Shown: positions 3,675 through 46,080, numbered from the stretch's first letter. The stretch is 50,267 bases of DNA from Patescibacteria group bacterium (GCA_018823045.1 JAHJIX010000011.1:1-50267), one strand, 5' to 3'. Made by a program: numbers and translations. Notes: generated from the sequence alone by a model not told the origin.

Positions 3675-3677
3675 AGA

Positions 3678-18626: not shown

Positions 18627-18747
18627 TGCCATCCTGGGCATAATCCCAACAAAGTACGGAATGGAATCGAAGGATCCCCTGTTTATATCGTACTAAGAAG
18701 GGGATCCTTCGATCCCTTACGCTCTACTTCATTCACTCAGAATGACA
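18627..18747. repeat. REP-like palindromic element, inverted pair
   Basis: tgccatcctgggc..TCGAAGGATCCCCT-spacer-AGGGGATCCTTCGA..CACTCAGAATGACA; related half-copies at 34597-34648 and 42034-42094. Confidence 0.75.
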
Positions 18748-24958: not shown

Positions 24959-25072
24959 CGTCATTGCGAGGAGGCACGACGAAGCAATCCCATACATAAA
25001 TACATTAAACAATAGGTTAAGGAAACAAACGAAGAGATTGCCGCGGTGTGCTAACGCCACCTCGCAATGACG
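24959..25072. repeat. RPE/REP-like palindromic element (GTCATTGCG...CGCAATGAC type)
   Basis: CGTCATTGCGAGG..GAAGCAATC..GATTGC..CCTCGCAATGACG; related copy at 35606-35790. Confidence 0.8.
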
Positions 25073-25080
25073 TATATATA

Positions 25081-25593: not shown

Positions 25594-25603
25594 GAGATGA
25601 TGA

Positions 25604-26335: not shown

Positions 26336-26663
26336 AAGATAATCCCATATTAAGTATATACTCTTCTTTGAGTATAACGAGATTTATAGAATATTTCAAG
26401 GATTGTTTTTCTCACACAATTATGCTATAGTACATATATTCTTATTCTCTTCTCGATAGTCCTTACCCTTAGTACTCAGAATCTTTAAAGTATACACCCC
26501 CTAACTCAAAGTAAAGGGGAAAATCCAGAACCTCCATAGTGCGTCAAAGCCTCAACTGCCGACCAAAGCAGCAAAGACGAGTTTTTGTTTTTGGATTCCT
26601 GTGGCAACACACAGCACACAGGACTCCTCTAAGTATATTCCAAACAAAATCGAATGAAACATA

Positions 26664-26716
26664 CTATAAAGGATCCATCACGATCAAGTACAAATCACGT
26701 GATGGAAGCCGAGTTG
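26664..26716 (-). repeat. Spacer motif B: terminator-like hairpin with TGATTTGTACTTGAT apex
   Basis: Minus CAACTCGGCTTCCATCACGTGATTTGTACTTGATCGTGATGGATCCTTTATAG aligns with 31801-31853. Confidence 0.8.
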
Positions 26717-26881
26717 CTGTATTCCCTACAGCGGGGAGAAAGCTCGAATGATACCGATTACGTATGATACCCGCTTTCCTTTAAAGAACAATGCTCTGGA
26801 TTGACCTCCATCATGAGCAGTAAGGAAACTTCTTTTTATCTTGTGAAAGATTGGTAAAAGTTAGAAAACCATTTTGGAGAC

Positions 26882-27790
26882 TTAAAGTCTCCGTGCGATG
26901 GCAGCCTCCCGAACGGCCATCGCGTTTGAGCTGCTGGTGACATTGGCGATTTCCATCACCTGATCCACCAGCTCCTCAGCTCGGTCGCGGGACAAGTGAG
27001 GGCTCATCCCTTGTCCCTCGCGCAGATACCACTGCTTGGGGGAAAGGAGGGAGAACCCCTCATCCGCGACATTCTCCCGCCAACCGTCCTCGGGAAGGAC
27101 TTCCTCGTCCTCGCGACCAAGGTAGAGCTGGCGGGAGGCCTCCGGCATCCACGAGCGCATGCGCGCGTCGCAGTACCGGAGGCCCTTGACACTGATCTCA
27201 TCGTAGCCGAGCCGCCGAAGCTCGGGCAGGAATGAGAGATCGCTCACTCCTGCTATGTACGGGTGCGCGATCGGGAGCGCGCGCACACCGTACTCACGGG
27301 CCAGCTCGAGGGTCTTCAAGTGCTGCTGCACCGAAACACCCTCAACGTCGCCGTTACCAGAAATCCCAACAACCAAAAAGAGGTTAGGGATCTCGGCCAG
27401 GCGACGCATTTGCTGGCGGGAGACAGCCCACTTTGTGCAACAGGTCACGAGCTTGGCCCGACTCGCAACCTGCCCCAAGAAGTGCCAGAGCCACTTGTCA
27501 AGCTTTGGCCATAACGGATCTGTTATAGCCGTAAACCCGACAAAGTCGCCTTCAAGCACTCCCCAGGGGAATCGCAGGAATCGGTCCTGCGCCGCCGGGT
27601 CTTCCCCGATCCAAGGCGGCACGTTCACGTACGTGCACGCCTTGTTGATGCCCGCCACGGGATTGGCGTTCCATGTCCCGCGACGAGCATCGTGCTCGGT
27701 TATGAAGCAGTACTTGCATGCCACGGGGCACGCAGGCTTTCCTGCTTCAAATTTGAAGGCCGCCGAGCGGGCCTCCGTGATCTGAATCAC
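26882..27790 (-). CDS. Radical SAM protein (SPL-like fold), GC-rich
   Basis: CPVACKYC (CX3CX2C), TDP, TK, ISG, PYIAG strand motifs; SD AGGAGG before GTG start. Confidence 0.8.
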   Translation of the reverse strand: MIQITEARSAAFKFEAGKPACPVACKYCFITEHDARRGTWNANPVAGINKACTYVNVPPWIGEDPAAQDRFLRFPWGVLEGDFVGFTAITDPLWPKLDKWLWHFLGQVASRAKLVTCCTKWAVSRQQMRRLAEIPNLFLVVGISGNGDVEGVSVQQHLKTLELAREYGVRALPIAHPYIAGVSDLSFLPELRRLGYDEISVKGLRYCDARMRSWMPEASRQLYLGREDEEVLPEDGWRENVADEGFSLLSPKQWYLREGQGMSPHLSRDRAEELVDQVMEIANVTSSSNAMAVREAAIARRL

Positions 27791-27906
27791 TCTGACCTCC
27801 TGGCGGGGACTCCCCCGCCTTTTTTTTATTTTTTTGTTTTAAATTTGTCAGCACGACCGCGACGGACAATGTGGTGTCAGACGTCACGGCCGTGCTGAGA
27901 TGGCCC

Positions 27907-29082
27907 TCAGCGCTGGAGCATGTGCTCCAGGTCGGCGGGCGCGCAACCCACCGACGACCGGTCGGTGTAATGGTGCAGGATACAATACCTACACCCAAAA
28001 CACTTTTCGAGCTGGGCCGACCAAGGCCACCAGCTGTTGAGGCAGTGGAGGTTCGCACCCCCGACAGCCTCTTGGAGGACCTTAACGTGGCCCACGTCAA
28101 GCCCCCCTTCGTCAATCATCCCCGGCTTGACACACAAGGTGCCACCGAGGACGAACCGGCAGAAGGTGAGGTCCCCGAGGGTGCGCGCGTTGCGCACCAC
28201 GACGCGGGGCTGCCGCTCGACGTAACACGTCGTGCAGCAACTCTTGCAGTTCAGCCGCGTATCGCTGCTGAAGCTGCACGCCTTCTGCGGGGCAGGTTGG
28301 TACTCGAGATCGTAGCCCACCTGCCGGAGCCACGCGAGAATCTCAGGGTTGGGCTCGGTAGGACCACAGGTACCCCGAAGGGGACACTCGATCGCATCGC
28401 ATCGAACCAACTGAGGCGAACCCCAGTAGGGGTTGAAGGGCGAAGGACGCCCCGTGAGATAGCTCACGGCACAGTTCACTCGCGTGAACAAACGGATCCC
28501 ATTCTCACGGGCACACTCCATGACGAGGTCGAACCCCGTCATCTGCTTCACCCTCAAGACCCACTCAGTCCCTTCCTCAGGAGACATCTCCTCGATCAAG
28601 GAGGCATCCCCCCGGAACCCGCTCACGCAAGCGACCTCACACCCAGCCGCCTGGAGATTTTGAAAAATCTCCGTCAACACCTCCCTCGAGGTGTTGTAGG
28701 GCGGGGTTAAGGGACGGACGGCCGCAAAGGCCTTCACCCCCGCTTCCCGAAGGTTGCGGAGGGTAGTATAGCGGTGGGCGTGACCCACCTCCTCGAACGC
28801 CCGGCCGAGGCCGGAAACGCTCACCATCACAACCAGCCCGGGCAGGACCAACCTGGCCAAATCTGCGGCCCGCTGGGGACCGATGGCCCCCTTCGTGATG
28901 ATGCTCACCGGCCCGGTATGCCCGGTCTCGGCGAGCCGCTCGAGCTTCTCCATGGTATCACCCCACTGGAGGGTGGGGTCACCGTAGTAACAGTTGACGG
29001 AGACAGGCAGGGCCCGGAGGGCCTGCCCGACGATGGAGGTGGTGAGGTTGCGGGCGGAGTTGATGTTCTTGCTGTTGCTCAT
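27907..29082 (-). CDS. Cys-rich radical-SAM-like protein with the cluster motif at the C-terminus, GC-rich
   Basis: GDP, IITKG, VSVSG, RPLTP, VSGFRG strands; CKSCCTTC and C-terminal CFGCRYC; SD GAAAGGAG before ATG 29082. Confidence 0.75.
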   Translation of the reverse strand: MSNSKNINSARNLTTSIVGQALRALPVSVNCYYGDPTLQWGDTMEKLERLAETGHTGPVSIITKGAIGPQRAADLARLVLPGLVVMVSVSGLGRAFEEVGHAHRYTTLRNLREAGVKAFAAVRPLTPPYNTSREVLTEIFQNLQAAGCEVACVSGFRGDASLIEEMSPEEGTEWVLRVKQMTGFDLVMECARENGIRLFTRVNCAVSYLTGRPSPFNPYWGSPQLVRCDAIECPLRGTCGPTEPNPEILAWLRQVGYDLEYQPAPQKACSFSSDTRLNCKSCCTTCYVERQPRVVVRNARTLGDLTFCRFVLGGTLCVKPGMIDEGGLDVGHVKVLQEAVGGANLHCLNSWWPWSAQLEKCFGCRYCILHHYTDRSSVGCAPADLEHMLQR

Positions 29083-29213
29083 GATATCTCCTTTCAAGAG
29101 AATTGAGCGTACTAAACGCATCCACAACGGATACGTTCATATATACTTTTTTTTAAAAATATACATAAACGTATCAGGATAGTGTCCTTTTGACACTATC
29201 CTTGAGATACAAT

Positions 29214-30557
29214 TTATTTTGTTATTTCTTCCATGGCTTCGATAAAGCGATCCACATCTTCCTGCGTATTACACAAGGCAAATGATGCTCGAATAAATCC
29301 AGGAACAGCATCCTCTTTGCCTGCTTTTACATCTTCAATAATCTTTGTTTCATCTTGAATATCGAGCACCTGACGAATCACATTATATACACAAAAACTT
29401 CCAGCACGCACCCCAATGCCAAATCGACTATTGAGTTCTTCTGCCACGTCTGTAAAGTTTATTCCCTTTACATTAAATGGCACAACTGTGCTCAAATGAT
29501 TATCATTTACATAGAGCTCAATCTTTGAATTATTTTTCAAATAATCATATACCTGCTTTGCAAGTCCATGTTCATATGCTTCAACCTGCTCAATTCCAAT
29601 GTCTTCCAATGCTTCAAATGCTGATGCCATAGAAATGGCCCCAATCGCATTTGGTGTACCTGGATCATGTGCGAGTTGATTAGTATAACGTAAAAATTCA
29701 CCGTCTTTTGTAATATATGGTAAATTTCCACCGCCAATTTCATAAGATAAAAAGTTATCAAAAAACTTTTTTGGACCGATCAAAAATCCTCCACCATATG
29801 GCGCATAAAATTTATGACCAGATGCAGCAAGAAAATCAATTCCAAGCTCTTGCATGTCCATTGTATGATGTTGTACAAACTGACAAGCATCAACAATAAA
29901 ATATGCTCCGTATTTATGAACCAATTGTCCAATTGCTTTGATATCTGGACAATATCCTGTTGCATTTGATGATGCAGTAAGTACAAACGCTTTAATATCA
30001 TGTTCTTTTAATAATTTTTCAATATCTGCTAAATCAAATTCAAAATTTTCATTCACAGAATATTGTAATACTTGTTTTCTCCCTGCAAGCTGAATATGTT
30101 CATTTACGCTTTCCATATCGTCAAGCGCAACTTGCTCACTTCCTAATGCTTTAATTCCTTCTGTTTTAACCCAAGGAAGCCAAGAAGAACTATGTTCAAT
30201 ACTAGATACGGCAACTTTTCCAGAAAGAAAAGAAAAATAATACGCTACAGTATTCATAGCACCTGTAGTATTACCAGTAAACAAAACATATGCATCTTCT
30301 GGAGCGTTTACAAAACGTTTAATCGTATCTCTACTTGCTTCGTATACATCTGTCGATACTTTAGATTTTACTCCAGCACCACGATGAACAGAACCATAGC
30401 TTGCAATATATTCTTGTACAGCTTGCTCAACTGAAGCAAGAGCTGGAGTTGTCGCTGCATTATCTAAATTAACATAGCGAACAAGACCACGATCAGTGGT
30501 TTTTACTTGATAATTCTGAATTGCTTCAGAAAATAAATTGTTTGTTTGAATTGTCAT
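29214..30557 (-). CDS. Class V PLP aminotransferase / cysteine desulfurase (SufS-like)
   Basis: NLDNAATTP, DACQ, ASGHKFYAPYG, GVRAGSFC. Confidence 0.9.
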   Translation of the reverse strand: MTIQTNNLFSEAIQNYQVKTTDRGLVRYVNLDNAATTPALASVEQAVQEYIASYGSVHRGAGVKSKVSTDVYEASRDTIKRFVNAPEDAYVLFTGNTTGAMNTVAYYFSFLSGKVAVSSIEHSSSWLPWVKTEGIKALGSEQVALDDMESVNEHIQLAGRKQVLQYSVNENFEFDLADIEKLLKEHDIKAFVLTASSNATGYCPDIKAIGQLVHKYGAYFIVDACQFVQHHTMDMQELGIDFLAASGHKFYAPYGGGFLIGPKKFFDNFLSYEIGGGNLPYITKDGEFLRYTNQLAHDPGTPNAIGAISMASAFEALEDIGIEQVEAYEHGLAKQVYDYLKNNSKIELYVNDNHLSTVVPFNVKGINFTDVAEELNSRFGIGVRAGSFCVYNVIRQVLDIQDETKIIEDVKAGKEDAVPGFIRASFALCNTQEDVDRFIEAMEEITK

Positions 30558-30616
30558 ATTGTTTTTTATAAAAATCTTCTCAACCAACTCTATTCTTAAA
30601 AAATAAAGTAAGTAAT

Positions 30617-30847
30617 CAAAGGGATAAGGTGCTACTTATCCTGGTTTGAGTGCTGATACAGGCAGAATTACCCATATCACTGTTTCTTCTCATGAAGTCT
30701 CATTGCAAGGTCGCTTGCAACTCCTTCTTTAGCCGTGAGAATGCGCACTACGATAGTGACGCGCGGCAAGCTCGGTAGGAAGATAGATATTCACCTATCT
30801 ATGAGCTATTCCCAGTTTACTGCTGGTTCAGTTTCTGGCTGGACCAC
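30617..30847 (-). other. Hairpin-dense structured spacer ending in GGATAAG-TAGCAC-CTTATCC-CTTT
   Basis: At least five local inverted repeats visible in 230 nt. Confidence 0.65.
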
Positions 30848-31141
30848 CTAACGGGTGGGACGTTGCCCAAGCTTCGCTTCGATAGAAGCAAAAGCCTGGT
30901 GGGCCTCCGCAGTCCAAGGCTTCTCCTTGAAACTACGGTAGCCCATACAACACGCGAAAAACTCCGCATCCATCCCCGTCAAGAGGACAGAAAGAGATTT
31001 CCGCATCCCCGTCTCAGGCGGATCCATCCGGAGAGCAGCATTCTGCCGCCCATCCTGGAGAATCCACCGGATAGGAGTCCACCCCTCCAAAACTGCAGCC
31101 GCCATGACGCGGGCAGCCCTGAAGGTCTGATGATGGCTCAT
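30848..31141 (-). CDS. Hypothetical protein (97 aa), GC-rich
   Basis: Co-oriented ORF whose GC-rich block matches the ORF limits. Confidence 0.6.
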   Translation of the reverse strand: MSHHQTFRAARVMAAAVLEGWTPIRWILQDGRQNAALRMDPPETGMRKSLSVLLTGMDAEFFACCMGYRSFKEKPWTAEAHQAFASIEAKLGQRPTR

Positions 31142-31470
31142 CAATTTTCCACCACGCCTTGTCTCCTCGCGCTCCCGCAAGGTCTTTCGGGGTGGTGGCA
31201 ACTAAGAGTCACTGACCCAATATGGGTTATCCTTTGCGCATCAATATGACTTGCAAAACCAGTGTGATACACATTGCATGTATCTAATACAAAAAGAATT
31301 ATTCTTTTCGAAACCATCATGCAGATGGATCTTCCCGTACATCTAACAGCACGGGCTTTGATATGACTTGGTATTTGGGGTCCTAGCCCTTTAGGCAATA
31401 CCTTGCCATGCACCCCGACTGAGTCGGGGCACTCCCGGACATGCCGGTCCAGTGAATCCACCGTCAGACG

Positions 31471-31701
31471 CTAGGTCAACTCGGTGAACCGAGGTCCACC
31501 GAACCGAACGTCAAAGGCATCCGACGTAGGCGCGCAAGAAGCAAAAGCCTCTCGCAACGCCTGTCGGTTACCACGACGGTGGAGGCGCCGAGCCAAAACA
31601 GCAAAGCTGCTGTTTTGCACACCCTTACGCAGGTGTGCACTCCGCGCAGCCCCTTTCGAGACTGCACGAGCTGGCTGGCGCCCGCCATTTTGACGAGACA
31701 T
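31471..31701 (-). CDS. Small Arg-rich basic protein (76 aa)
   Basis: SD-like AAAGGA next to the ATG; ARRLHRRGNRQALRE segment. Confidence 0.5.
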   Translation of the reverse strand: MSRQNGGRQPARAVSKGAARSAHLRKGVQNSSFAVLARRLHRRGNRQALREAFASCAPTSDAFDVRFGGPRFTELT

Positions 31702-31770
31702 TCCTTTTATATATAAATACACTCTATACAAAAGCGATGCCTCGTCTGTTATTTATTTTGTAAAAAACTT

Positions 31771-31853
31771 CTTCTAAGAAACATCTATACATAGATACTT
31801 CTATAAAAGTCCCATTCCAATCAAGTGCAAATCATGAAATGGGAGTCGAGTTG
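31771..31853 (-). repeat. Spacer motif B: TTGCAC-loop hairpin, CTTTTATAG and a downstream small hairpin
   Basis: Near-identical flank to 32964-33038 (CTTCTAAGAAACATCTA..ATAGATACTTCTATAAAAGTCCCAT..GTGCAA..ATGGGA on +). Confidence 0.9.
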
Positions 31854-32008
31854 TGTATACGTTTTGCGGGTCGTATACTACCCCGTTTGATTCGCATTGC
31901 ACGAATCGTTTATGCGTCCAGACAGAAGATTCTGGGCGACTTTCCTTGCCGTGGTGTAAGATCAGGCAAGGACATTTGGAAAAAGACCAGCAGAGTCAGC
32001 GAGTCAGT

Positions 32009-32596
32009 TTAATCAGCGACGACACACCAGGTGTCATCGTATGACTTTACTTCCACAGCCTTCTCACGGATCTCCTCGACGGTCCACGTCGCCGCCTCAT
32101 TGTTTCCGCCCGCTAAGTTATGCACAAAGCGAACAGGACTCAGAGGAGCCTTCGGGCCGGCAAAGGCGAGGATGGCAACCAGCACATGCGTGCAGTCACT
32201 CTCCTCGATCCGTTGCTGCTCTTTGGCGTCAGCCTGGACGTCGGGGTCAGCCAGGTAGGCCTCGCGGGTATAAACCACGAGAGCACACCCGTCAACCGCC
32301 GCCGCACAGGATCGCTTCAGGAAAAGCTCGACTCGTCCACGGTAAAGTACCGCGTGAAAGTCAGAAGCATTCTCCGTACGACGACCAACGCCAGCAGAGA
32401 CGAACGGAACTGCATCCGGAACAAAGATAAAACCTTGCCCCGGAACGTCCTGTCCCTCGAAGTCAAACGCAGCAATAGCTTTTTGAGCCACCTCTGTGAA
32501 TTTCTCTGAGTTAAGAACCTTCGTTCCAATCGCCTCCACGTTGAAAGCAGAAACGATGCTCGCATGGGTCACACGAACATCAGGAGTATTATTCAA
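32009..32596 (-). CDS. Hypothetical protein, DUF3228-like
   Basis: SD AAGGAGG; VVYTREAY..LVAILA..PLSPVRFVHNLAGGN..W pattern recalls DUF3228 (family call tentative). Confidence 0.7.
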   Translation of the reverse strand: MNNTPDVRVTHASIVSAFNVEAIGTKVLNSEKFTEVAQKAIAAFDFEGQDVPGQGFIFVPDAVPFVSAGVGRRTENASDFHAVLYRGRVELFLKRSCAAAVDGCALVVYTREAYLADPDVQADAKEQQRIEESDCTHVLVAILAFAGPKAPLSPVRFVHNLAGGNNEAATWTVEEIREKAVEVKSYDDTWCVVAD

Positions 32597-32963
32597 TCAT
32601 TTCCTCCTTTCTCACCGCAGCTCTCGCTTTGGCGACCCAGGCTCTTATGGCATTGCACCATAAGTCCCTGCTGCTTAAATATCATCTTGTATTGAGTGTT
32701 GTTCCCCTGTTGACCTCAGGGGTGAGCGGGAATGCTCTCTCAATCTCTCTATTCTAAACGATATTGTTAGAACAGAATTTTACAAGGCAAGCAGTAGCTG
32801 ATAACGGAGCTTATGCGAATACGTAACATGTATTAAACGCCTGTGCATTGCGCGCAGGTCTCTCATCGGGAGACGAGAGATCATGAAATTTCTTTCATCT
32901 AAGATATCTAGAGAAAGATACACTACATGAAAGAAACTTCTATATATTTTTTAATGAACTGGT

Positions 32964-33076
32964 CTTCTAAGAAACATCTAAAATATAGATACTTCTATAA
33001 AAGTCCCATCAAATTCACGTGCAATGAATCAGATGGGAATAGACTTTCGCAGTCAAGTGCTTATCGTGCGAAAGTC
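32964..33076 (-). repeat. Spacer motif B, tandem pair of GCAC-loop hairpins
   Basis: Minus GACTTTCGCA-cgatAAGCACttgac-TGCGAAAGTC, then TCCCATCTGATTCA-TTGCACG-TGAATTTGATGGGA-CTTTTATAG. Confidence 0.85.
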
Positions 33077-33350
33077 ATGTGTAATATTTAACCCAATATT
33101 CTAGGGGAAACCTCGATTGATACCTTCTATGTGTACCCGGTTTCTTTTTTACTCATTTTCGGCGAGTAACCTATTCTGGATTCATGCCTTCACCAGAAAT
33201 GGCGGAATGTTTTCTTCTTGCTTTGTGTAAGTTTCTCCGACGTAGGAGAGCAAGAACCGTCAACAGACAACGGTGGTTTTTAAGCATCCTAGGATCAACC
33301 AATACCTAGGCCCACTCTTATGTTACCCTTCAGAGTGATTAGGGGGGCTC

Positions 33351-34385
33351 TTAACCCAAGCGCGCCTTGAGCGCCGGCAGCACCGTCTCGTTCCAGACCA
33401 CCTCGCTCACGTGGAGGAGGAAGGTCGTGTTGGAGATGATGCCCGCGGCGGGCGAGGACTCGAAGTCGTCGGGGAGGAGCGACTGCAGGTTGATGTCCTG
33501 CTGGTGCCGCTTGCTCACCGCGAGCGAGTACTGCGCGCCGTGCTGCGCCGCGATCGGGCCGAACGCCTTCACGACGACGGTCACCTTGGCGCCCTTGGTC
33601 TCGAGCGCCCGCGTGAGCGTGTTCAGCTCGAAGCGTGGGGCCTCTCGCGAGTCCACGAGCCACGTGGACGGGGCCACCTCGGTCGCGGTCTCGGCGAGCG
33701 CCTTGGCGGCTCCGACCTGCTCCTCGTACTGCGCCACCTTCTGGCGCAGGCCGTCGAGCGCGGTCTCGTCGCCCTGCGACGCGTCGACGAAGCTCTGGAA
33801 GAACTCCGCCTTGGCGTCCTCGGAGCGCTGCGGCGCCTTCGGGTTGAAGGGCGGCAGCGTGCCGAGCGCACGGCAGGCGAGCCAGCCGAGCTCCGAGAGG
33901 GTCTCGGCGCTCTGCTTCGGCCGCTCGTCGAAGACGGCGGCGTCGGCGTCGATCTGCTCGTAGGTCACGCCCAGCGCCTTCATGGCACCCGTGAGACCGT
34001 CCAAGTCGCTGTCCGCGACGATGACGGTCCCCTCGGCGTTGAACTCCCCGCTCGTGATGAGCGTGGAGCACGCGGGGTGCTCGGCGCGGCTGGAGATGAT
34101 CGCGTCGGACGCGACCTCACGGAGGCGGGACGCGGCGTCGGCGATCGACTGCGCACGCGGGTTCGAGGGGGCGAGCTCGTCGTGGTGGTCGCGGACGACC
34201 ACGTTCACACCGTCGGCCACGAGGGCCTCGGCCGTGGCGACGAGCTGCTCGGTGGCGGGGGTGTCGATGAACACGACCTGCCGCGCCTCGAGGGCGGCGA
34301 GCTCGGTCAGGACAGTCTCGCGGTCGCTGGGGCTGAAGAACTTCGAGAACAGAACGTTGGAGTCGCTGATCTTGATCTGGAACAT
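33351..34385 (-). CDS. DHH-like phosphoesterase, very GC-rich
   Basis: FIDTP, VRDHHD, DSDLDG motifs; SD GAGGAG before ATG 34385. Confidence 0.7.
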   Translation of the reverse strand: MFQIKISDSNVLFSKFFSPSDRETVLTELAALEARQVVFIDTPATEQLVATAEALVADGVNVVVRDHHDELAPSNPRAQSIADAASRLREVASDAIISSRAEHPACSTLITSGEFNAEGTVIVADSDLDGLTGAMKALGVTYEQIDADAAVFDERPKQSAETLSELGWLACRALGTLPPFNPKAPQRSEDAKAEFFQSFVDASQGDETALDGLRQKVAQYEEQVGAAKALAETATEVAPSTWLVDSREAPRFELNTLTRALETKGAKVTVVVKAFGPIAAQHGAQYSLAVSKRHQQDINLQSLLPDDFESSPAAGIISNTTFLLHVSEVVWNETVLPALKARLG

Positions 34386-34596
34386 GTTTATCTCCTCAGA
34401 GACTACCTGGTATGTCAAACCAGGGGAATCTCAGATAGCTTATGCCAATCCTTGATCCCAAATTATTATTTCTACAGATATTGACAACGCCTCTGTATGG
34501 CGCGCTTGGGAGCTTCCCCCAAGTATTACATATCAGTTTTACACCCGATACTACGGTGTGAGATAAATCTCAATGTATGTACCTGCCTTGCTAACA

Positions 34597-34648
34597 GGGG
34601 ATCCTTCGATTACTCCCGTACTTCGTCAGGATCCACTCAGGATGACAG
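34597..34648. repeat. REP-like half element
   Basis: GGGGATCCTTCGA..CACTCAGGATGACA, same family as 18627-18747. Confidence 0.75.
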
Positions 34649-34927
34649 TGATATACACACATTGAGAATCATCTCAAATTATTTTTTCTTTTAAAGATCA
34701 GTACCTGTTCCCTATTACTTGTTACAAGTTATACGATACAGGTTACACGTTTAGTCGTAATACCGACTGTTCCTGCTCCCATCTCTTCTTGCGAATTAAT
34801 GAGGGCGGAACGCACTCGGTACTATCCATGTCTCACAACATGTATAGGAAGCTCGCGAGTGGGAAGCTTCGATCTTTCGATCAAATCTATCCACAATCTC
34901 CAGCTTCTCTCTCAGTTTCCTGAGAGC

Positions 34928-35030
34928 GATGTACTCACATTGCCGGAAGAAATCTCTCTCCTTCCTTTACTCGGGCAATATGGGTAAGCATCTAAGTGAT
35001 ATAAGTGTATAAAACACAAACGCATTGTCA
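34928..35030 (-). ncRNA. Leader motif A, copy 1 (putative structured RNA)
   Basis: TGACAATGCGTTTGTGTTTTATACACTTATATCA then a long stem enclosing TAAAGGAAGGAGAGAG; homologous to 39971-40064. Confidence 0.6.
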
Positions 35031-35264
35031 GTTATCTGCTATGATATCTTTTTCTTCCGCTCATCCCCCGACAAGTTATGTTGGCCTCAGAATGAAAAAA
35101 CACTCCTTTGAGGGAGCGCGCTATAGTGACTGGCATACAGAGATACTCTCTATATACTAGCCCTATCTCGCTCTCTCTTTCGATCTAGGTTGCTTGATTT
35201 GTAAGGTTACTTGTCTTGATTGACTTGTGGCTGTTTTTCTTGCCCTTTGTCATCATGACGTCAT

Positions 35265-35293
35265 ACTATAATACAAAATAGAGAAAATGTCAA
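35265..35293 (-). promoter_or_regulatory. sigma70-type promoter P1 driving the leftward array
   Basis: TTGACA-17-TATAGT. Confidence 0.75.
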
Positions 35294-35364
35294 GACCTCG
35301 TTGTTTATGTTGTCTTTTTAAAATATAATTTAGCTTATTTTAGCTAAATTTATGTATAGTAAAT

Positions 35365-35386
35365 ATGTCCAGTGCCTACTAGACAT
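35365..35386. promoter_or_regulatory. Putative operator (ATGTCTA-N8-TAGACAT family)
   Basis: ATGTCCA-gtgcctac-TAGACAT. Confidence 0.6.
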
Positions 35387-35605
35387 ATTTAAGTTAGAGA
35401 ACAAAAAAAGCCCTAAAATAAGGCAAAAAATACGTTCTGTTCTACTGAACTCGTTATGAACAAAATACAATTTCTTGGCTAATATAAGGTAAAAAATAGA
35501 TGTGGAAATCAAAAAACAATACTCCCCTGCCCCCAAAATATCTAAAAAAGAAGAAAAATCAAGGTATTTCTCCAAAAAATATTGATATCAACGAACAAAT
35601 AACCC

Positions 35606-35790
35606 CGTCATTGCGCCGCGTGCCGTTTATCGGTGAGCCATAGCGAAGCAATCCCCTCGCCAGCTCCATAGTCTGAAGAGCAACGGAAGCTGTGGAGCTT
35701 CTATGCTCTTGCACTATGGCTCCACAGCCCTAGCGGGACTATGGAGCCAGCTTATGAGGCTCCCTCCAGAGGCGGGCAAGCGCAATGACG
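35606..35790. repeat. RPE/REP-like palindromic element with nested internal hairpins
   Basis: CGTCATTGCG..GAAGCAATCCC..GCTCCATAGTC/GACTATGGAGC..CGCAATGACG. Confidence 0.75.
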
Positions 35791-35998
35791 TGATAAAAGA
35801 GCCAAAAAACACCCTTGTCAATAGAAAAAGAGCTTGACAAAGCAAAAAAATAAGCAAATTTTGCTTATTTTAGTGTAAAAATGAATGATTGACAATTGCC
35901 CTATTTTATGCTATATTATATCTATCAAGACGAAAAGGGTCCCTGATATTCAAATTATTTGGATGGATGGCCCCCTTTTTTATTTTACTTCAACAGAT

Positions 35999-36047
35999 AA
36001 AACATGTCTACACTCACTAAGACATGTTTTTTCTTTTATGCTATAAT
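35999..36047 (+). promoter_or_regulatory. Palindromic operator overlapping the -35 of the regulator's own promoter
   Basis: AAAACATGTCTA-cactcact-AAGACATGTTTT; extended -10 TGCTATAAT at 36039-36047. Confidence 0.7.
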
Positions 36048-36079
36048 AAAGCAAATAACAACCCTCTAATACCTCTACT

Positions 36080-36859
36080 ATGCAAGAAACAATTATTACC
36101 AACCTCATGGAAGCAGGGCTTGACCCAAGTACTGCTGAAATTTATATGATGCTCATTGAACGTGGTGAAATGTCTCCAAAAAACATGTTCCCTCATACGG
36201 AACTCTCTCGTGCGACCGTGCATGATGCATTATCTGAACTCTTAGCCTATGATTTTGTAGAATACCGCAAAGAAGGCCGCCAAGCATATTATATGCCAGT
36301 CCACCCAAATAAACTTCATAATTTGATTGAAGACAAAAAACGAGAGACAAAACAGTTTGAGCAAAACATGCAAGAAACCATCCGCTCACTAAGCGGTACA
36401 TTTAACTTGAGCCAACACAAACCAGGGGTCCGATTTTTTGAAGGAAAAGAAGGATTGAGAGTAGCACTTGGAGATACATTAACATCCCAAGGAACGATCT
36501 ATGCATATATAGATGTTGATTCTGTGGTAGATAAAAATATTGATGAAATGAACCAAGCCTATGTCAAAAAAAGAAAAGAATTAGGCAAAGATAAACAACT
36601 ACTGATTAATAATAGTGCCAGTGCTCAGGAATACATGAAAAAACTTGGACCAAAAAATACAGATACGCGCATGTTACCCACATATATAGACGCTTTCCAT
36701 ACGAGTCTACAAATTTATGACAATAAAGTACTCTATGTAACCCTACGAAAAAAAAATATTATTTCTATTATTATAGAAGATAAAGATATTTATAAACTCC
36801 AAAAAGATTTATTTCACTTTCTGTGGGATATGTCAAAAGATTCAATGATCCAACATTAA
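36080..36859 (+). CDS. TrmB-family transcriptional regulator
   Basis: N-terminal wHTH (GL...AEIY..L...SRATVHDALSEL), coiled linker, PGVRFFEGKEG, C-terminal IYDNKV..IIED..F..LW effector domain. Confidence 0.88.
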   Translation: MQETIITNLMEAGLDPSTAEIYMMLIERGEMSPKNMFPHTELSRATVHDALSELLAYDFVEYRKEGRQAYYMPVHPNKLHNLIEDKKRETKQFEQNMQETIRSLSGTFNLSQHKPGVRFFEGKEGLRVALGDTLTSQGTIYAYIDVDSVVDKNIDEMNQAYVKKRKELGKDKQLLINNSASAQEYMKKLGPKNTDTRMLPTYIDAFHTSLQIYDNKVLYVTLRKKNIISIIIEDKDIYKLQKDLFHFLWDMSKDSMIQH

Positions 36860-39294
36860 TTACTTTTTTCCTCAACCTGCTCAAAAACAAATACGCGTTG
36901 TTTCCCATCTGGATGATCAAAATACCGATGGACATCATACCCCTCTTTTGTGAGTCTTTCAACGGTATCAAGTGCAACCTGCCAATGATCTTCAGCAGAA
37001 AAAGCACGGACAATCAATCCTTTTGGATTATCATCTTGATCAATAAACGCAAGTAAATCTTCTTCTGTCATATAACGAGATATAGCGTCTGCATTCTGCT
37101 TCACATCAGCAACCATGGTATAAAACCATATATCCTTTTTTATTTCTTCAATCCCTGTAATTCTAAATCCAATATCTTCTACATACCTTATTCCCACAGA
37201 GATCGCTGGAGAAGCTGTAATATGAAAAGGAGACTCTTCTACAACTTTTGTGAGGGAACCCAACATCATTACTTCTCCAATTCCAGCACCCCGATAGTTA
37301 GAATTGACATTAAACCACTGACCATATAATTCATCTGGTTTTTCTGGTATTGGTGTAAAACCAAAAAAACCAAGAATATTATTTGCATATTCATTTTCAG
37401 TATCTACTTGAAGACCCTTTGCTTCAGAAAGATCTTCAATCCTCAATATAAAAAATTCTGTTTCTTTCTGAGAAAATGCACCTTCTAGCCCACGAACAAC
37501 TTCCTCAACAATTGCAGATTCTTGTGTAGACCAATTTTTAAATACAATTTCTTTCATTCTCTCTTGATCAATAGGTGAAATTTTTATTGCCCGCTCTCTA
37601 TTCAAAGATAAATTATTAACAACAGAAATATCTACACGCTCTGCTCCCTTAAACTTCTCCCGAAAAATAGCCGAAAAAGCCACAACTTCTCGATTTACCC
37701 CTTCTAATAATGTAATTAACTGAGCCATTTTTTCATCATCCCGCATCACAGTATGATATTTTTTTAGTAAACCGGTTGCTTTATTTAAAATACTGGTACT
37801 GATTCTCGTTGTGGATAATCCTTCTGCATAATTATGTTCAGTAAAAAAATCTTCTATATGAATATCTAATTCTTCTGCTGCCCGAATAATTTCACTAAAT
37901 TGATGAAAAACATCCTGGGCTATTTCTTTTTTTTCTCTTGCTTCAAAATACTTTGCCATAGAAATAATACGGCCAGAAGATTTCTCATCAGCTTCAGTCG
38001 CCAACAAACAACGTATTCCCTCTATCCCATATTTTTCTTTTAATTCTATTAAAACCTGAGCTTTATGTTGTGCTTCTTTACTCTCAAATTCTTCACCAAT
38101 AAATTGATACACCCAAAAGATTTCTCGGACACTTAAATTACCAATTAAATTTCGATAATGAATATGAAAATCTGGTAAATCTATTAAAAAACGATTTCTC
38201 TTTTCTTCTGGGTAACCCCCTTCATGCGAAAAAAGTAAATTATATCCTAAATTTTCATTTATCGTAGCTGTAATAGTCTCTCCATACCCACTTCTATCCA
38301 TCTGACGTGATTTGACTTGTATATAACCGATTGGGCCCAACCTCCCAAAAATACTAATTGTTTCTGCTGAATCTAATTGTTGCACATATATTGCATCCTT
38401 AGGGATATGTCCTTCTATAATAAAATGCTTATCTAATATATCAAAAGTATTTCCTTGTATTGAGACGGGTCCAACATCAACGTTTTTTAAAATCCAATCA
38501 TAAGTATCAGCTAATCCAACTTTTTTCTCAATTCTTGCTTTCTTTCTTTTTGCAAGGAGATATTGTGCTTGTTCTTCATCGACAAGTTCAAATATATCAC
38601 AGATTGCACGAGTAAATTTATATGGATATGGATGATCAATCCATGCATCTAAATCTGCTTTAAATCTATCTGGATCTATAAGAGATTGTAAAGACATAAC
38701 TTTCTGTGCATTTGTAAAGTTTGCTCGATTTGATGATGAATAAGATTCTTCATCTAAACGCCACTTTAAATCAGCATTATAAGGTGCATTATGCTCTGCA
38801 TATTGATGAGATCGATCATATTCACCATTATACGGAACTCCACCCCCAGCTGTGATTTTTTTCATTAATGCATTCCTGATATCTTCTGCTAAGATATTAA
38901 TAATAGCTGCTACAGACTCAACACCTGCTTCAAGTGATTTAAATACATACTTTTTTAACATTGTTAATAACTCCGCATAAACAATTTCATCAAATCCAAA
39001 TTGATCTTCTGTTCCTTCATTAATCCCTGCGTAAGGAATATCTTTACGCTCATCACCACGCAGTGGCAAATCAGATTCTTCTTTTCCTCGTATCTGATCA
39101 AGTAATCCATCATCTTCAATTAAAAAATGCAATTCATCTTCTATCAATTCATGATCTTTTAATTCTCGTAACATATCAATATATGCTTCTACGGTATCCG
39201 CTGATTCAAATCGTTTTTTCCAATAAAAAAAAGACTCATGTTCTTTATGAGTTTCTTCTTCACTACGGGGATATCTTCGCTCTGATCTATTCAT
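36856..39294 (-). CDS. Large acidic protein with C-terminal GNAT acetyltransferase domain
   Basis: FNVNSNYRGAGIG acetyl-CoA motif A and YVEDIGF motif B. Confidence 0.75.
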   Translation of the reverse strand: MNRSERRYPRSEEETHKEHESFFYWKKRFESADTVEAYIDMLRELKDHELIEDELHFLIEDDGLLDQIRGKEESDLPLRGDERKDIPYAGINEGTEDQFGFDEIVYAELLTMLKKYVFKSLEAGVESVAAIINILAEDIRNALMKKITAGGGVPYNGEYDRSHQYAEHNAPYNADLKWRLDEESYSSSNRANFTNAQKVMSLQSLIDPDRFKADLDAWIDHPYPYKFTRAICDIFELVDEEQAQYLLAKRKKARIEKKVGLADTYDWILKNVDVGPVSIQGNTFDILDKHFIIEGHIPKDAIYVQQLDSAETISIFGRLGPIGYIQVKSRQMDRSGYGETITATINENLGYNLLFSHEGGYPEEKRNRFLIDLPDFHIHYRNLIGNLSVREIFWVYQFIGEEFESKEAQHKAQVLIELKEKYGIEGIRCLLATEADEKSSGRIISMAKYFEAREKKEIAQDVFHQFSEIIRAAEELDIHIEDFFTEHNYAEGLSTTRISTSILNKATGLLKKYHTVMRDDEKMAQLITLLEGVNREVVAFSAIFREKFKGAERVDISVVNNLSLNRERAIKISPIDQERMKEIVFKNWSTQESAIVEEVVRGLEGAFSQKETEFFILRIEDLSEAKGLQVDTENEYANNILGFFGFTPIPEKPDELYGQWFNVNSNYRGAGIGEVMMLGSLTKVVEESPFHITASPAISVGIRYVEDIGFRITGIEEIKKDIWFYTMVADVKQNADAISRYMTEEDLLAFIDQDDNPKGLIVRAFSAEDHWQVALDTVERLTKEGYDVHRYFDHPDGKQRVFVFEQVEEKSN

Positions 39295-39326
39295 ATGAGT
39301 TATTATATCACAGATTGTCTCTTTTT

Positions 39327-39548
39327 TTATATATCAAAAGAGAAGGCGGTGCAGGCCTTCTCCGAGTGGTGATATATTGTTTCGTCTCTTTTAGCAGCGT
39401 CGCTACCATGGACAAGATATATCAACTCGCCCATTCCCCATGTGTACTCTTCAGCGGTAGCCTCCGAATACCACTCTAGCCAAGGGTATGGCATGCAGTT
39501 TGCTTCACAGCAATCCACTCCCGGTTTACTGCCGGTGCAGTGAGCCAA
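39327..39548 (-). CDS. Small Cys-containing hypothetical protein
   Basis: 73-aa ORF directly after 39556-39750 in a GC-richer block; TTG start uncertain. Confidence 0.45.
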   Translation of the reverse strand: MAHCTGSKPGVDCCEANCMPYPWLEWYSEATAEEYTWGMGELIYLVHGSDAAKRDETIYHHSEKACTAFSFDI

Positions 39549-39555
39549 GCAGAGG

Positions 39556-39750
39556 CTAGGCGGCTACTGACCGCCGCCGCTCAGATTGGAGTTCATCATA
39601 AACTCCAATGAGGATCCAGTGATCCCCAGAGCAACGGAGGCAATAGCAAGCAGCCTCAAAGCAGTGCTGGCAAAACCATGAATGGCTTTCCAGCGTGGCA
39701 CCCGCGCGAAAATACGCGCGGACAGCTTCTGCTTTCTGTCTACTTGACAT
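39556..39750 (-). CDS. Small Cys-rich (Zn-finger-like) protein
   Basis: CQHC..CYCLRC; first ORF after promoter P2 and its leader. Confidence 0.55.
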   Translation of the reverse strand: MSSRQKAEAVRAYFRAGATLESHSWFCQHCFEAACYCLRCSGDHWILIGVYDELQSERRRSVAA

Positions 39751-39970
39751 GAAGATCTCTTTTCATGAAATCTCACCCCACTCCTTGCTCCCCTGATGCT
39801 ACCGTGCAATATCAGGGGTATTCGGAGTGGGGCCTTTCTTTTCTTGTGAAACAACTTGCTGGACTATCCAGTTACCCACCCCAACACATGCTACGGTGAC
39901 AAGTTGGATTTTTCCTCCTCCACTTTCCTATATAAAAAATCTCTGCACAAAAAAGTAAAGAAAGAAAAAA

Positions 39971-40064
39971 TGCTGATACTCGTCAAAAGGCTCTCTCTTC
40001 CCTTTAAGCAATATCAGCAATGCTTTTCTTGATACAAGTGTATAACACACAAACGCTATTGTCA
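39971..40064 (-). ncRNA. Leader motif A, copy 2
   Basis: TGACAATAGCGTTTGTGTGTTATACACTTGTATCA then a TGCTGATA/TATCAGCA stem enclosing TAAAGGGAAGAGAGAG. Confidence 0.6.
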
Positions 40065-40079
40065 CTTTGACAACGTCGA

Positions 40080-40108
40080 AGTATAGCATAGAAAAATGAA
40101 TATGTCAA
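40080..40108 (-). promoter_or_regulatory. sigma70-type promoter P2
   Basis: TTGACA-17-TATACT with extended TG. Confidence 0.8.
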
Positions 40109-40168
40109 GCTGCACAAATTCACAATTATGTTTATTGCCTACACTAAGCTAATTTATATCCTTAATAT

Positions 40169-40190
40169 ATGTAAAGTGGTGATTAGACAT
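40169..40190. promoter_or_regulatory. Putative operator (ATGTCTA-N8-TAGACAT family)
   Basis: ATGTAAA-gtggtgat-TAGACAT, with flanks similar to 35342-35395. Confidence 0.55.
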
Positions 40191-40371
40191 ATTTATGTCA
40201 AAACATAAAAAAATAACTAAAATAACACAAAAAACAGCTCTTTATATAAAAAACTGTTCTTTTAGGGGTATATGTGATGAAATACGTCTAGTTCACTAGA
40301 GGTATTTACATAAATGTGTACACTACTCAACACAACTACCTTGATTTTATTTCTTAGTTGACAAGTTACAT

Positions 40372-41367
40372 TTATTCCACCCAATCATCCTCTGCCTCAT
40401 ACACAGACGCAGGTGCATAGCGAAAATAAAAATTTCCTGGTCCCATCTGCTGATAGAGCCAATCAGCAACATCTTGCACATCTTCTAAATTTGCAGGGAT
40501 CAACTTTCTCTGCTGTAATTCTTTTACATATTGTTCTGCCACCTTTGCACCAATTTCTGCTGCTTTATCCAAATTAAGTGCTAACCAAAATACACGAATC
40601 CCATATTCCTCTATTGTTTGCTCAGCGTCATCATCTAATGTTAACTCCATACCACGACTGAGTGCCTCTGCATAAAATCGCAGCATCTTAGCAAGCATCT
40701 TTGGCCCAATTTGATCATGATATTGTTTATACTCATAATCACTTTGCCTTACTATCCCTCGAATAATATCTCGCAAACATGCATCCGTTGCTACAACATA
40801 CTCATCAGTCGCATACAGCTCATTCATTGTTAAATCTCGTGTATTAAGATATTCTCCAATATTTTCCAAGACTTCCACACCATCTCCTTGTTTAAAATCA
40901 TCTGGCATATACTCTTGAGCGAGTTCATTATCCATTCCAGGCTCTGGTTCATCTTCTGTCAAACGCACGATATCTATATCACGAGGTAATGATGTCGGAT
41001 CAATCCCTAAATTTCTCAGTAATAAAGAGCGAGCAGCTCCTCCTTTATATCCATACCCCTCTGGCAAGCGTTTCTCCATAAAATGCTCTGTCACAGGCAA
41101 ACGATAACTCCATTCATCTATCTGCTCTAATCCAACAAGATGTAATTCTTCTGCTGTCAGATCTGACAACTCTTTTTCTCGTGCAATATGCTCAATAATA
41201 GCTAAACGTTGTTCGCGTTTTACTGTCTCATCTACGGTCTCTTGTTCTGCCTTTTTTAGTAGTTCTACCGCCTCTGGGAACTCTTTTTGTGCATATTTAA
41301 GCAAAGAATCCTTAAAAGACCCTGCCTGAGGTGTCTTAATTTCTAGAGAAAACCTTTTTTTACTCAT
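40372..41367 (-). CDS. Class II nucleotidyltransferase-like protein (CCA/poly(A) polymerase head domain)
   Basis: KGGAARS..RDIDI and RDLTMNE resemble GGxVRD..DxD and RDFTIN. Confidence 0.7.
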   Translation of the reverse strand: MSKKRFSLEIKTPQAGSFKDSLLKYAQKEFPEAVELLKKAEQETVDETVKREQRLAIIEHIAREKELSDLTAEELHLVGLEQIDEWSYRLPVTEHFMEKRLPEGYGYKGGAARSLLLRNLGIDPTSLPRDIDIVRLTEDEPEPGMDNELAQEYMPDDFKQGDGVEVLENIGEYLNTRDLTMNELYATDEYVVATDACLRDIIRGIVRQSDYEYKQYHDQIGPKMLAKMLRFYAEALSRGMELTLDDDAEQTIEEYGIRVFWLALNLDKAAEIGAKVAEQYVKELQQRKLIPANLEDVQDVADWLYQQMGPGNFYFRYAPASVYEAEDDWVE

Positions 41368-41627
41368 ATCAATAATATAAAAATATCTATATATGTATTA
41401 TAGCAAATATACCACTCATTTGCACAAAAACACAAAATACCCATTTTTATGCTTAAATAAGCCAAAAGAAGAAATTTGCGTTCAACGAGAAATCTTTGAC
41501 TGGTCTGTTTTGCCTAGTGGCAAACAGGGATAACCCATTTCGGGCCAGTACACCCAAAAAAAGGAGAAACCCTATCACAGATAGGGCCTATCGCTCCGAG
41601 TTGAACCCCGACCAATTGGTCGGTGAC

Positions 41628-41783
41628 ATGCTCGACGAGCTCCTCCGTGAAGAGTGCCCAGGCGAGAACGTCTGGGTGCCGGGGATCATGAACGGGGCCA
41701 TGGGCGCAACTTTGCGTCTTATGGCCGCCGCTGATCTCCTCACGGAGGCCGCCAAAGAAAAGCTCGGCCTCAAAGAAGGCTGA
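41628..41783 (+). CDS. Small hypothetical protein in a GC-rich patch (start uncertain; frame open from 41496)
   Basis: GC-rich ORF flanked by the same spacer motifs as the main array. Confidence 0.5.
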   Translation: MLDELLREECPGENVWVPGIMNGAMGATLRLMAAADLLTEAAKEKLGLKEG

Positions 41784-41950
41784 GCCATAATTGGCTAGTC
41801 GGACCCAGCTGTGCCCGACGATAAAGAAACTGGGAAAGCCACAACAGAGATCCAGGAGAAGTTGTGGCGGCGGATCTGTTCCGTCGGTCTAAAGTAACCA
41901 CATTCGTGGAAACGATAGATCTCAAGACAACCCGACACACTCGGGACCCC

Positions 41951-41987
41951 AAAGGCATCTCTTGCACCAGAGACGCCTTTTATTTTA
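41951..41987 (+). terminator. Terminator-like hairpin with TTGCAC loop
   Basis: AAAGGCATCTC-TTGCACCA-GAGACGCCTTT-TATTTT. Confidence 0.7.
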
Positions 41988-41990: not shown

Positions 41991-42018
41991 AAAAACACCG
42001 TCAACAGACGGTGTTTTT
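41991..42018. terminator. Bidirectional terminator after rpoC
   Basis: AAAAACACCGTC-aaca-GACGGTGTTTTT. Confidence 0.85.
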
Positions 42019-42033
42019 ATGTTTCTTATGTAT

Positions 42034-42094
42034 GGGATCCTTCGACTCGTTTCACTCACTCCACGTAAAAAACACGTGGCACAGCAGAATGACA
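42034..42094. repeat. REP-like half element
   Basis: GGGATCCTTCGA...CAGAATGACA. Confidence 0.65.
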
Positions 42095-45978: not shown

Positions 45979-46080
45979 AAAAGCGAGGATCAACTTCTTT
46001 GTCACCTACCGCATGAAGGCTGAGCAACAAAGTATATAAATAAGGGATATTCGTAGCAAGCTACAAGAAATTATTTATGC

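Follow-up and report, generated by a model that had tools for sequence, protein, structure and literature searches.

A small family of conserved-apex hairpins behind co-oriented genes in a gene-accretion hotspot of a Patescibacteria genome

The 50,267-nt stretch analysed here (the window) is contig C9 of a 24-contig, 1.16-Mb genome of about 35% G+C, which is that of a Magasanikbacteria-type member of the Candidate Phyla Radiation (CPR)/Patescibacteria. Between rpoC (42103-46005) and yebC-ruvC (25081-26335) it carries 15.8 kb of accessory DNA, referred to here as the island, and our subject is a family of four hairpins within it, designated H1, H3, H4 and H5. For the congener G001 the rpoC-yebC interval measures 5.4 kb, and for G002, where it also contains a GC-rich open reading frame (ORF), 1.9 kb; it is thus a variable hotspot. 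In 2-kb windows the G+C content at 26.4-36 kb reaches 45–55%, rising to 60–75% within some ORFs, and the minus strand carries all of the genes of this stretch. The locus is marked as a place of accretion, where genes that are high in GC, highly structured and foreign-looking have joined an AT-rich, streamlined genome.

The island did not arise in assembly: the probable source sample, assembled independently, gives a sequence that covers 25044-35746 with zero differences and flank-like depth, and identical pieces along the island are present in a groundwater run from a different study. Two joints suggested by contig comparison, 25075/36560 and 30026/38179, are untrustworthy, with sides of only 21 letters.

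A previous, sequence-only reading of the window described seven terminator-like hairpins, H1 to H7, as sharing one (U/A)(U/A)GCAC loop on differing stems. All seven are present where it placed them and each of them folds (Table 1). They are not one class, however: H1, H3, H4 and H5 form a homologous family and the other three are unrelated to it. Nor is the common hexaloop borne out, as the apex of H1, H3 and H5 is 15 nt of unpaired sequence, the UUGCAC of H6 lies within a 13-nt loop that folds further, and the loop of H7 is UGCACC. What H1, H3 and H5 do have in common is a longer core, GATWWGYACTTGA, of which there are three copies in the window (0.02 expected), all three genome copies lying within 6.4 kb on one strand. 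The claim that three hairpins share GATwwGyACTTGA accordingly stands, none of 100 shuffles reaching three occurrences and the genome containing only these three. The 5' flank CAACTCGRCT, said to be common to the copies at 26.7 and 31.8 kb, is likewise upheld, with three occurrences in the genome, two of them here.

Table 1. Hairpins, associated blocks and genes of the island, with fold energies (kcal/mol) and z-scores of the folds.
Feature	Position	Strand	Energy; z	Description
H1	26674-26706	minus	-15.3; -2.3	family member; 9-bp stem UCCAUCACG / CGUGAUGGA, 15-nt apex UGAU-UUGUACU-UGAU; 176 nt past stop of 302-aa high-GC ORF
H1 5' flank	26707-26716	minus		CAACTCGGCU
Small hairpin ahead of H1	26716-26732	minus		GCUGUA-GGGAA-UACAGC, G-rich loop
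Block E1 of H1 unit	26738-26778	minus		stem GAAAGC/GCUUUC around GGGUA..GGUAUCAUUCGA; homologous to 33107-33144
H2	30622-30641	minus	-10.3; -3.7	non-member; 7-bp hairpin, hexaloop UAGCAC, ahead of SufS-like gene; called terminator-like in scan
H3 3' tail	31770-31810	minus		ACUUUUAUAGAAGUAUCUAU..UAGAUGUUUCUUAGAAGA; recurs after H4; short palindromes inside
H3	31810-31844	minus	-12.5; -2.4	family member; 10-bp stem with one U-G pair, apex UGAU-UUGCACU-UGAU; 165 nt past stop of 195-aa ORF
H3 5' flank	31844-31853	minus		CAACUCGACU
H4 3' tail	32963-33004	minus		homologous to H3 tail
H4	33004-33038	minus	-31.0; -5.8 (jointly with H5)	variant member; CCCAU/AUGGG base kept, Watson-Crick pairs in place of UGAU/UGAU; loop UUGCACG (pentaloop UGCAC by fold)
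H5	33042-33076	minus	-31.0; -5.8 (jointly with H4)	distant member; 10-bp stem of unrelated sequence, apex CGAU-AAGCACU-UGAC
Block E1 of H5/H4 unit	33107-33144	minus		stem GAAACC/GGUUUC
Sigma-70-type promoter	35265-35293	minus		TTGACA, 17 nt, TATAGT; 11/12 matches; aligns with promoter on contig L028
H6	39776-39832	minus	-37.9; -6.6	non-member; inner helix of a ~735-nt GC-rich RNA unit with its own promoter and terminator
H7	41951-41980	plus	-13.9; -2.8	non-member; canonical intrinsic terminator, then UUUUAUUUU; 168 nt past stop of 95-aa plus-strand ORF
302-aa ORF		minus		high-GC, CX3CX2C motif
406-aa ORF		minus		
SufS-type cysteine desulfurase gene		minus		low-GC
97/117-aa, 195-aa and 344-aa ORFs		minus		

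A covariance model, R1, was built from H1, H3, H4 and H5 together with two hairpins of G001 (G001a and G001b), and every position of 26.0-42.3 kb was scored with it. H3 scores 54.9 bits, H4 51.1 and H1 49.0; H5, which belonged to the training set, scores 26.4 bits (E-value of 1e-5, model positions 10-38). In gene-strand order from the 5' end, the module consists of an A/C-rich flank, 5–6 outer pairs YCCAU(Y)/(R)AUGGR, 3–4 variable pairs, the 15-nt apex, the 3' arm, and YUUUAUAG. The family apex is UGAU-UUGYACU-UGAU, or CGAU-AAGCACU-UGAC in H5; in G001b, as in H4, Watson-Crick pairs replace UGAU/UGAU and the loop is UUGCACG. H5 stands in tandem with H4, 3 nt ahead of it and 275 nt past the stop of the 344-aa ORF, and both H3 and H4 are included in a 106-nt direct repeat (31750-31852 and 32941-33046; 79% identity). 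The E1 blocks of the H1 and H5/H4 units differ by a compensated C-G to G-C change in the closing stem, as read directly from the sequence, and the small hairpin ahead of H1 has counterparts, also read from sequence, at 33083-33100 (AAUAUU-GGGUUA-AAUAUU) and in G001 (AUGCA-GGUUU-UGCAU). In an extended alignment of four sequences, RNAalifold recovered the main hairpin alone, and neither the E1 block nor the G-rich-loop hairpin.

Conservation within the module is strikingly uneven. Among H1, H3 and G001a, the apex is identical at 41 of 45 compared positions (91%) and the stem base at 30 of 36 (83%), while the mid-stem is identical at only 5 of 24 (21%); when H4 is added the values are 69/90, 63/72 and 14/48, respectively. 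Across both sets, then, identity is 77–91% in the apex, 83–88% in the base and 21–29% in the mid-stem, which is about random, and the mid-stem still pairs. In six aligned sequences 77% of cells are standard pairs and double changes are seen in 11 of the 14 pairs, values that were not reached in 500 shuffles or six slid registers, although the count is inflated and the compensation partly built in, since H5 and G001b were chosen by their apex. The four hairpins are thus homologous, with a mid-stem compensated to saturation and a conserved apex and base. It follows that positions free of constraint are saturated, and that the apex and the stem base are under selection.

Two further hairpins near the family, at 31889-31907 and 32644-32664 (minus strand), have different stems and a common loop, UGCAAUG. 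With their closing pairs these loops make up GUGCAAUG, the exact complement of CAUUGCAC at the tips of H4 and G001b; with both strands counted, the genome has 46 occurrences of the GUGCAAUG/CAUUGCAC 8-mer, three of them within 1.2 kb here. They would be either the family motif on the opposite strand or a kissing partner. Loop–loop kissing through the self-complementary UGCA was dropped, as the loops of H5 and H1 do not fit, and readings as a mimic of a tRNA anticodon loop, as a mimic of a T-loop or as a K-turn were dropped on geometry.

The (U/A)(U/A)GCAC apex is no commoner than chance as a class, a result that, by the refuting condition set in the sequence-only reading, tells against the generic motif but not against the longer core. 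WWGCAC occurs 124 times in the window. On its minus strand GCAC lies in the loops of 21 simple hairpins (17.2 expected), genome-wide it is found in the loops of 210 of 15,841 hairpins, which ranks it 177th of the 256 four-mers, and 15 of 996 terminator-like hairpins of the genome have a GCAC loop (15.9 expected). A local excess on the minus strand of 26.3-42.1 kb, nine GCAC loops against 3.5 expected, has P ~0.01, post hoc and uncorrected, and two of the nine are family members. With the looser motif WWGYAC[TG]YG, stems of at least 6 bp are formed at 56 of 437 genome matches and stems of at least 8 bp at some 14, where a rough estimate gives about 8; two of these matches, C10:40696 and C15:146164, are terminator-like and were judged to be chance.

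None of the three remaining hairpins is recognised by R1: H2 gives no match at E-values up to 10 with filters off, H6 matches on the opposite strand only (8.9 bits, E-value of 2.4), and H7 gives 8.1 bits (E-value of 4.1), the last two being noise. The four letters GCAC are common to H2, H6 and H7 by chance. Conservation of the loop with covariation of the stem, which had been asserted for all seven, therefore holds for H1, H3, H4, H5 and their relatives, and not for these unrelated hairpins that merely contain GCAC. The U-rich runs ascribed to five of the seven are indeed there after H1 (UCCUUUAUAG), H2 (CUUUGAUUAC), H3 and H4 (both CUUUUAUAG) and H7 (UUUUAUUUU); they are weak, and are lacking after H5 and H6. 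A loop motif of four letters, chosen by eye from terminators, is no evidence, and only the longer homologous core stands up to statistics.

H6 is enclosed by a stand-alone GC-rich RNA unit at 39339-40108 (minus strand), which has no convincing ORF, a near-consensus promoter with a TG extension (40108-40080) and a terminator (39363-39339). This unit has blocks in common with 34975-35033 and 35347-35430, and shares a covarying hairpin, CCRGCAGUAAACYGG, with 30810-30832.

All six copies of the family are co-oriented with genes, 24–275 nt after a co-oriented ORF. In five of the six the sense strand is more stable than the antisense (for H3, -12.5 against -7.7 kcal/mol), the stem-loop energies being -9 to -29 kcal/mol, and G-U pairs are confined to the sense strand. 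Pairing kept up by double changes, the sense-strand U-G pairs and stability, and the orientation together argue for a single-stranded fold of the gene strand, most simply in the transcript. The sigma-70-type promoter of Table 1 (35293-35265, read in gene direction) is the only near-consensus promoter upstream of the array on the gene strand and could serve the co-directional array as a whole. Much of the array may therefore be transcribed as a single unit, with the hairpins between cistrons. A contig from a sediment RNA library carries 33066-33158 with seven differences, joined to different upstream sequence. Its stop at 33066, inside H5 (depth 2.9, one study), is no evidence of an RNA 3' end, such contigs being too few and too shallow for ends or expression.

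High scores with R1 (45–55 bits) are found in two of 107 genomes of the family: the present one, with three matches and H5 with filters off, and G001, the single congener searched, with two. Elsewhere in the 107 genomes there are six matches of 19–23 bits (E-values of 0.006–0.08 per genome), a number expected by chance, and two of these, in G116 and G006, have a UUGCAC(U/G)UGA-like centre. A BLAST comparison of the module with 60 relatives gives G001 as the sole credible match. The exact pattern CCAT..TGATWTGYACTTGAT..ATGG occurs at one locus (L021) in genome contigs, and was found in neither viral nor metagenome contigs; the pattern TGCAC-N9-ATGGGAYTTYTATAG was not found in viral contigs. In 400 other genomes of the class a 14-nt apex pattern gives 31 single matches in 30 genomes, about three times the roughly 10 obtained with a reversed control. 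Eleven of the 34 apex-pattern loci were fetched and rescored with R1; none exceeds 15.5 bits, and the apex lies in a hairpin only at L042 (14 bits). In these comparisons the family is confined to one genus. A full-text literature search for Patescibacteria conserved-loop terminator hairpins shows no such known element among the matches listed, and what is new here is a small, genus-restricted hairpin family with an unusual conservation pattern in a gene-accretion hotspot.

The two copies in G001 each follow small ORFs, upstream of ftsH. None of the ORFs of at least 100 aa in the window at 24-47 kb matched the G001 locus, smaller ORFs not having been queried, and the cargo being unmatched between the two genomes, the module belongs to the lineage and not to a particular gene. 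A possible third organism is represented by the metagenome contig L028, which has an orthologue of the 344-aa gene that is 82% identical and has 64–68% G+C within flanks of about 30% G+C. As here, the orthologue is divergent from a TrmB-type gene and lies behind a matching promoter and a conserved leader hairpin, and the hairpin that follows it, with apex UUAGCACUCG, is a probable orthologue of H5.

Several known systems invite comparison. The family resembles intrinsic terminators in having a stable stem-loop in the gene-strand transcript after a co-oriented gene, with a weak U-rich run behind H1, H3 and H4 and a full U7 tract in one relative, G001b. It differs from them in that their loops normally drift, whereas here conservation extends over the apex, the stem base and the 3' UAUAG beside a saturated mid-stem, and in that its U-tracts are short or absent and were not called by the terminator scan. 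Repetitive extragenic palindromes (REP) and bacterial interspersed mosaic elements (BIME) are likewise imperfect palindromes, repeated in 3' untranslated regions in the direction of transcription, and they stabilise upstream mRNA. Unlike REPs and their associated tyrosine transposases (RAYT), however, the family has only four copies in one island and flanks no cognate Y1 transposase, and REPs conserve their stems.

Integron attC sites, which can form homogeneous chromosomal arrays, Vibrio VCRs among them, have inverted cores RYYYAAC/GTTRRRY and R''/R'. The family is similar in that its lineage-specific hairpin repeats occupy a variable region and lie 3' of cargo ORFs that are unrelated and co-oriented, but it lacks inverted cores, its flanks CAACUCGRCU (5') and ACUUUUAUAG (3') are non-complementary, there is no linked integrase, the apex and not the foot is conserved, and the gene strand folds better. 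The boxB of lambda nut with N, and the dual-hexaloop targets of ANTAR proteins, have a conserved loop on free stems, lie at terminators and are read by protein. Their logic of conserved loop and free stem is that of the family, and H5 and H4 are in tandem, but loop sequences and sizes differ (15/7 nt in H5, 5–7 nt in H4) and H5/H4 is the only tandem. For ANTAR (PF03861) the genome gave no match and the control genomes were silent too; no NusG paralogue was found, with a single NusG per genome. In its mode of action the family may be most like an intrinsic terminator or a REP-type 3' stabiliser; it shows none of the tested hallmarks of attC, REP/RAYT or lambda nut/N, and it matches no Rfam family. 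At gathering score Rfam reports only two tRNAs in the window, and at E-values up to 5 there are five weak matches in 26.0-42.5 kb, none of them on H1 to H6 and two at H7, far below gathering.

Among candidate factors, the sequence-only reading had named an Arg-rich ORF (76 aa, 31474-31701) that lies after H3. It is probably not a protein: its only homologue is itself, and the 306 nt that hold it (31440-31745, minus strand) fold at -170 kcal/mol with a z of -12.3. This segment, following the H3 tail, is probably an uncatalogued structured RNA, a far likelier reading than an N-like protein. Searches for enzymes found no reverse transcriptase (RVT_1; control positive) and no Y2 transposase (Y2_Tnp) or Rep_1 (controls silent). 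All four PF00589 tyrosine recombinases of G000 are on contigs C6, C7, C15 and C17, and there is none on the present contig or on G001:C6, and the sole Y1 transposase (Y1_Tnp, G000:C15) is flanked by the repeat family of 35.7 kb and not by H hairpins.

The explanation that we put ahead of the others, while holding it tentatively, is that the family is a lineage-specific RNA 3'-end or intercistronic hairpin module whose apex is read by a putative factor. H1, H3, H4 and H5 would be copies of the module, marking 3' ends and junctions of independently acquired genes within a co-directional array. The stem-loop would form in the gene-strand transcript and, with its short U-run (CUUUUAU), most likely double as a leaky intrinsic terminator and a protective 3' stem-loop, insulating and stabilising the message upstream. 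A trans-acting factor, probably a protein, would most likely make contact with the invariant parts, which are the YCCAU/AUGGR base, the apex of 15 nt and the 3' UAUAG, and so modulate termination, processing or decay at the junctions; the tandem G-A/A-G juxtaposition in the apex could give sheared pairs. Recognition by a protein or an RNA had been proposed for all seven hairpins, and is a fair inference from the sequences when limited to this family. The structure, homology, selection pattern, strand, orientation and difference of cargo between the two genomes are established by the sequences, while termination or stabilisation, and the existence of the factor, are what we infer. If the apex is a recognition site, it would offer a handle on post-transcriptional or termination control in CPR/Patescibacteria, in which, to our knowledge, almost nothing is known of regulatory RNA–protein pairs, and a shared junction element may tell how high-GC, foreign-looking genes are insulated or captured.

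A number of points weigh against this explanation. The family is small, with 6–7 members in 2–3 organisms, and the covariation count is inflated as noted above. The 3' tails of H3 and H4 are more alike than their upper stems, so that duplication alone accounts for some of the similarity. Short, interrupted U-tracts follow H3 and H4 (CUUUUAU) and H1 (UCCUUUAU), with none after H5; a simple terminator scan called none of H1, H3, H4 and H5, partly since its rule limits loops to 3–8 nt. The hairpins could just as well form part of the 5' region of the genes downstream, and no candidate apex-binding factor was found among ANTAR, a second NusG and the Arg-rich ORF.

The nearest rival, which corresponds to the switchable terminators of the sequence-only reading, makes the hairpins conditional attenuators of the downstream genes: hairpin and conserved 3' tail would start the leader of the next gene, and whether transcription continues into the 195-aa ORF, the structured RNA at 31.4-31.7 kb, and yebC would depend on a factor or on an alternative fold. 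The same 41-nt palindromic tail on H3 and H4 ahead of two different downstream units fits this, as do the resemblance between the two G001 tails, of which one, on direct reading of the sequence, stands behind a different terminator, the long, highly structured leaders after the tails (z of -9.3 at 32840 and -8.2 at 32960) and the tandem of H5 and H4. We nevertheless regard it as unlikely, since unrelated downstream genes offer no ligand or pathway in common, an alternative anti-terminator pairing was not identified, the search for a regulator was negative (ANTAR with its silent controls; second NusG), and the H1 tail diverges past UAUAG. It is less probable still that these are ordinary terminators related by recent duplication or gene conversion, with an apex conserved through youth rather than recognition. 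The 106-nt repeat holding H3 and H4 and the tiny, local copy number are in keeping with such a history, and a second terminator is duplicated in the region, where the rpoC terminator (41995-42014) resembles 33256-33274; but a neutral recent duplication is contradicted by the saturated mid-stem beside a conserved apex and base, the same pattern holds between two species whose flanking intergenic DNA is no longer alignable, and the compensated changes point to long-standing selection for pairing.

Two other readings look to DNA instead of RNA, and we give little credence to either. In one, the hairpins are single-strand DNA recombination or insertion sites, attC- or HUH-end-like, that border captured cassettes and are recognised by a putative enzyme through their invariant apex and foot, which would explain why unrelated high-GC genes pile up at rpoC-yebC, each with the same stem-loop behind it. 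Rolling-circle origins, too, have a conserved loop with covarying stems. Hairpins at junctions between unrelated cargo in two genomes, the 1,194-nt unit of the 195-aa ORF bracketed by direct copies of hairpin and tail, the variable rpoC-yebC interval, and a 344-aa gene not found in any of the 30 relatives searched all suit this reading. Set against them are the lack of attC-type inverted core sites at the hairpin feet on direct reading of the sequence, tyrosine recombinases on other contigs only, a single Y1 transposase that belongs with a different repeat family, the negative searches for Y2 transposase and Rep_1 (controls silent) and for reverse transcriptase, the better folding of the gene (top) strand, and the 5.1 kb with several genes between H3 and H1, so that these are not one-ORF cassettes. 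The other reading, with as small a chance of being right, is a duplex promoter or operator overlapping a terminator, in which TTGCAC, 19 nt and TATAG plus the AUGGGACUUUUAUAG block are read by RNA polymerase or a TrmB-type regulator. The TTGCAC-TATAG spacing is identical in H1, H3, H4 and G001a, the 3' arm and tail form the longest conserved run, and a TrmB-family gene lies 2–10 kb from the hairpins, its pairing with the 344-aa gene being conserved on L028. However, such a site needs no complementarity of the mid-stem arms, and it is contradicted by double changes that maintain the pairing; a 19-nt spacer with TATAG(A/G) as second hexamer is a poor sigma-70 fit, the promoter scan called none, and the G-U pairs are on the sense strand only.

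The genes of the island were also compared more widely. The 344-aa protein has more than 200 homologues at 50–82% identity, the few source-named ones being from Uhrbacteria, Parcubacteria or Patescibacteria, and has no paralogue in this genome. A scan of eight window proteins and one G001 protein against PHROGs and PADLOC gave no match, and an Atlas look-up placed the 195-aa ORF with unnamed phage-rich clusters at 0.92, a lead only. Upstream, a TrmB-type regulator is divergent from a strong promoter, which is followed by a leader of about 880 nt and the high-GC, DHH-like 344-aa gene (34386-36859); this arrangement is conserved on L028 at 880-4633. The leader contains a conserved covarying hairpin (34807-34859) and a terminator-like hairpin with a U-run (35119-35100). 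ARAGORN called a tRNA-Ile at 33455-33534 on the plus strand, within and antisense to the 344-aa ORF (70% G+C), which is unconfirmed by Rfam and probably a false positive.

An excess of minus-strand structure shows up along the island in a sliding z-score scan, with z reaching -9. In the 302- and 406-aa ORFs (26882-29127) there is excess sense-strand RNA structure throughout the coding sequence (z of -3 to -7), the 344-aa ORF has a weaker excess, to about -3, and the native SufS, TrmB, 812-aa and 331-aa genes have z near 0. Between the 406- and 302-aa ORFs, at 27802-27819 on the plus strand, a perfect 7-bp all-GC hairpin followed by T9 is an antisense-transcription terminator; as part of the gene strand, it directly precedes the ribosome-binding site of the 302-aa ORF.

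Other repeats are also present in and around the island. A REP-like repeat at 35659-35757 has copies on contigs C7, C15 and C20, and two of its copies (G000:C15:147040-147718) flank a Y1 (IS200/RAYT-type) transposase ORF at C15:147329-147553, in what looks like a REP/RAYT pair in a CPR genome. The copy of the rpoC terminator (minus strand) at 33256-33274 is diverged, has a decayed U-tract, and lies about 75 nt past the stop of the 344-aa gene. The genome also contains a dispersed repeat some 60 nt long, GUCAUCCUGAG..GUACGGGAG..AUCGAAGGAUCC, in six or more copies, located at 34591-34654, 18643-18683 and 42030-42075 and on contigs C4, C15 and C17; one of them is in the 3' region of rpoC.

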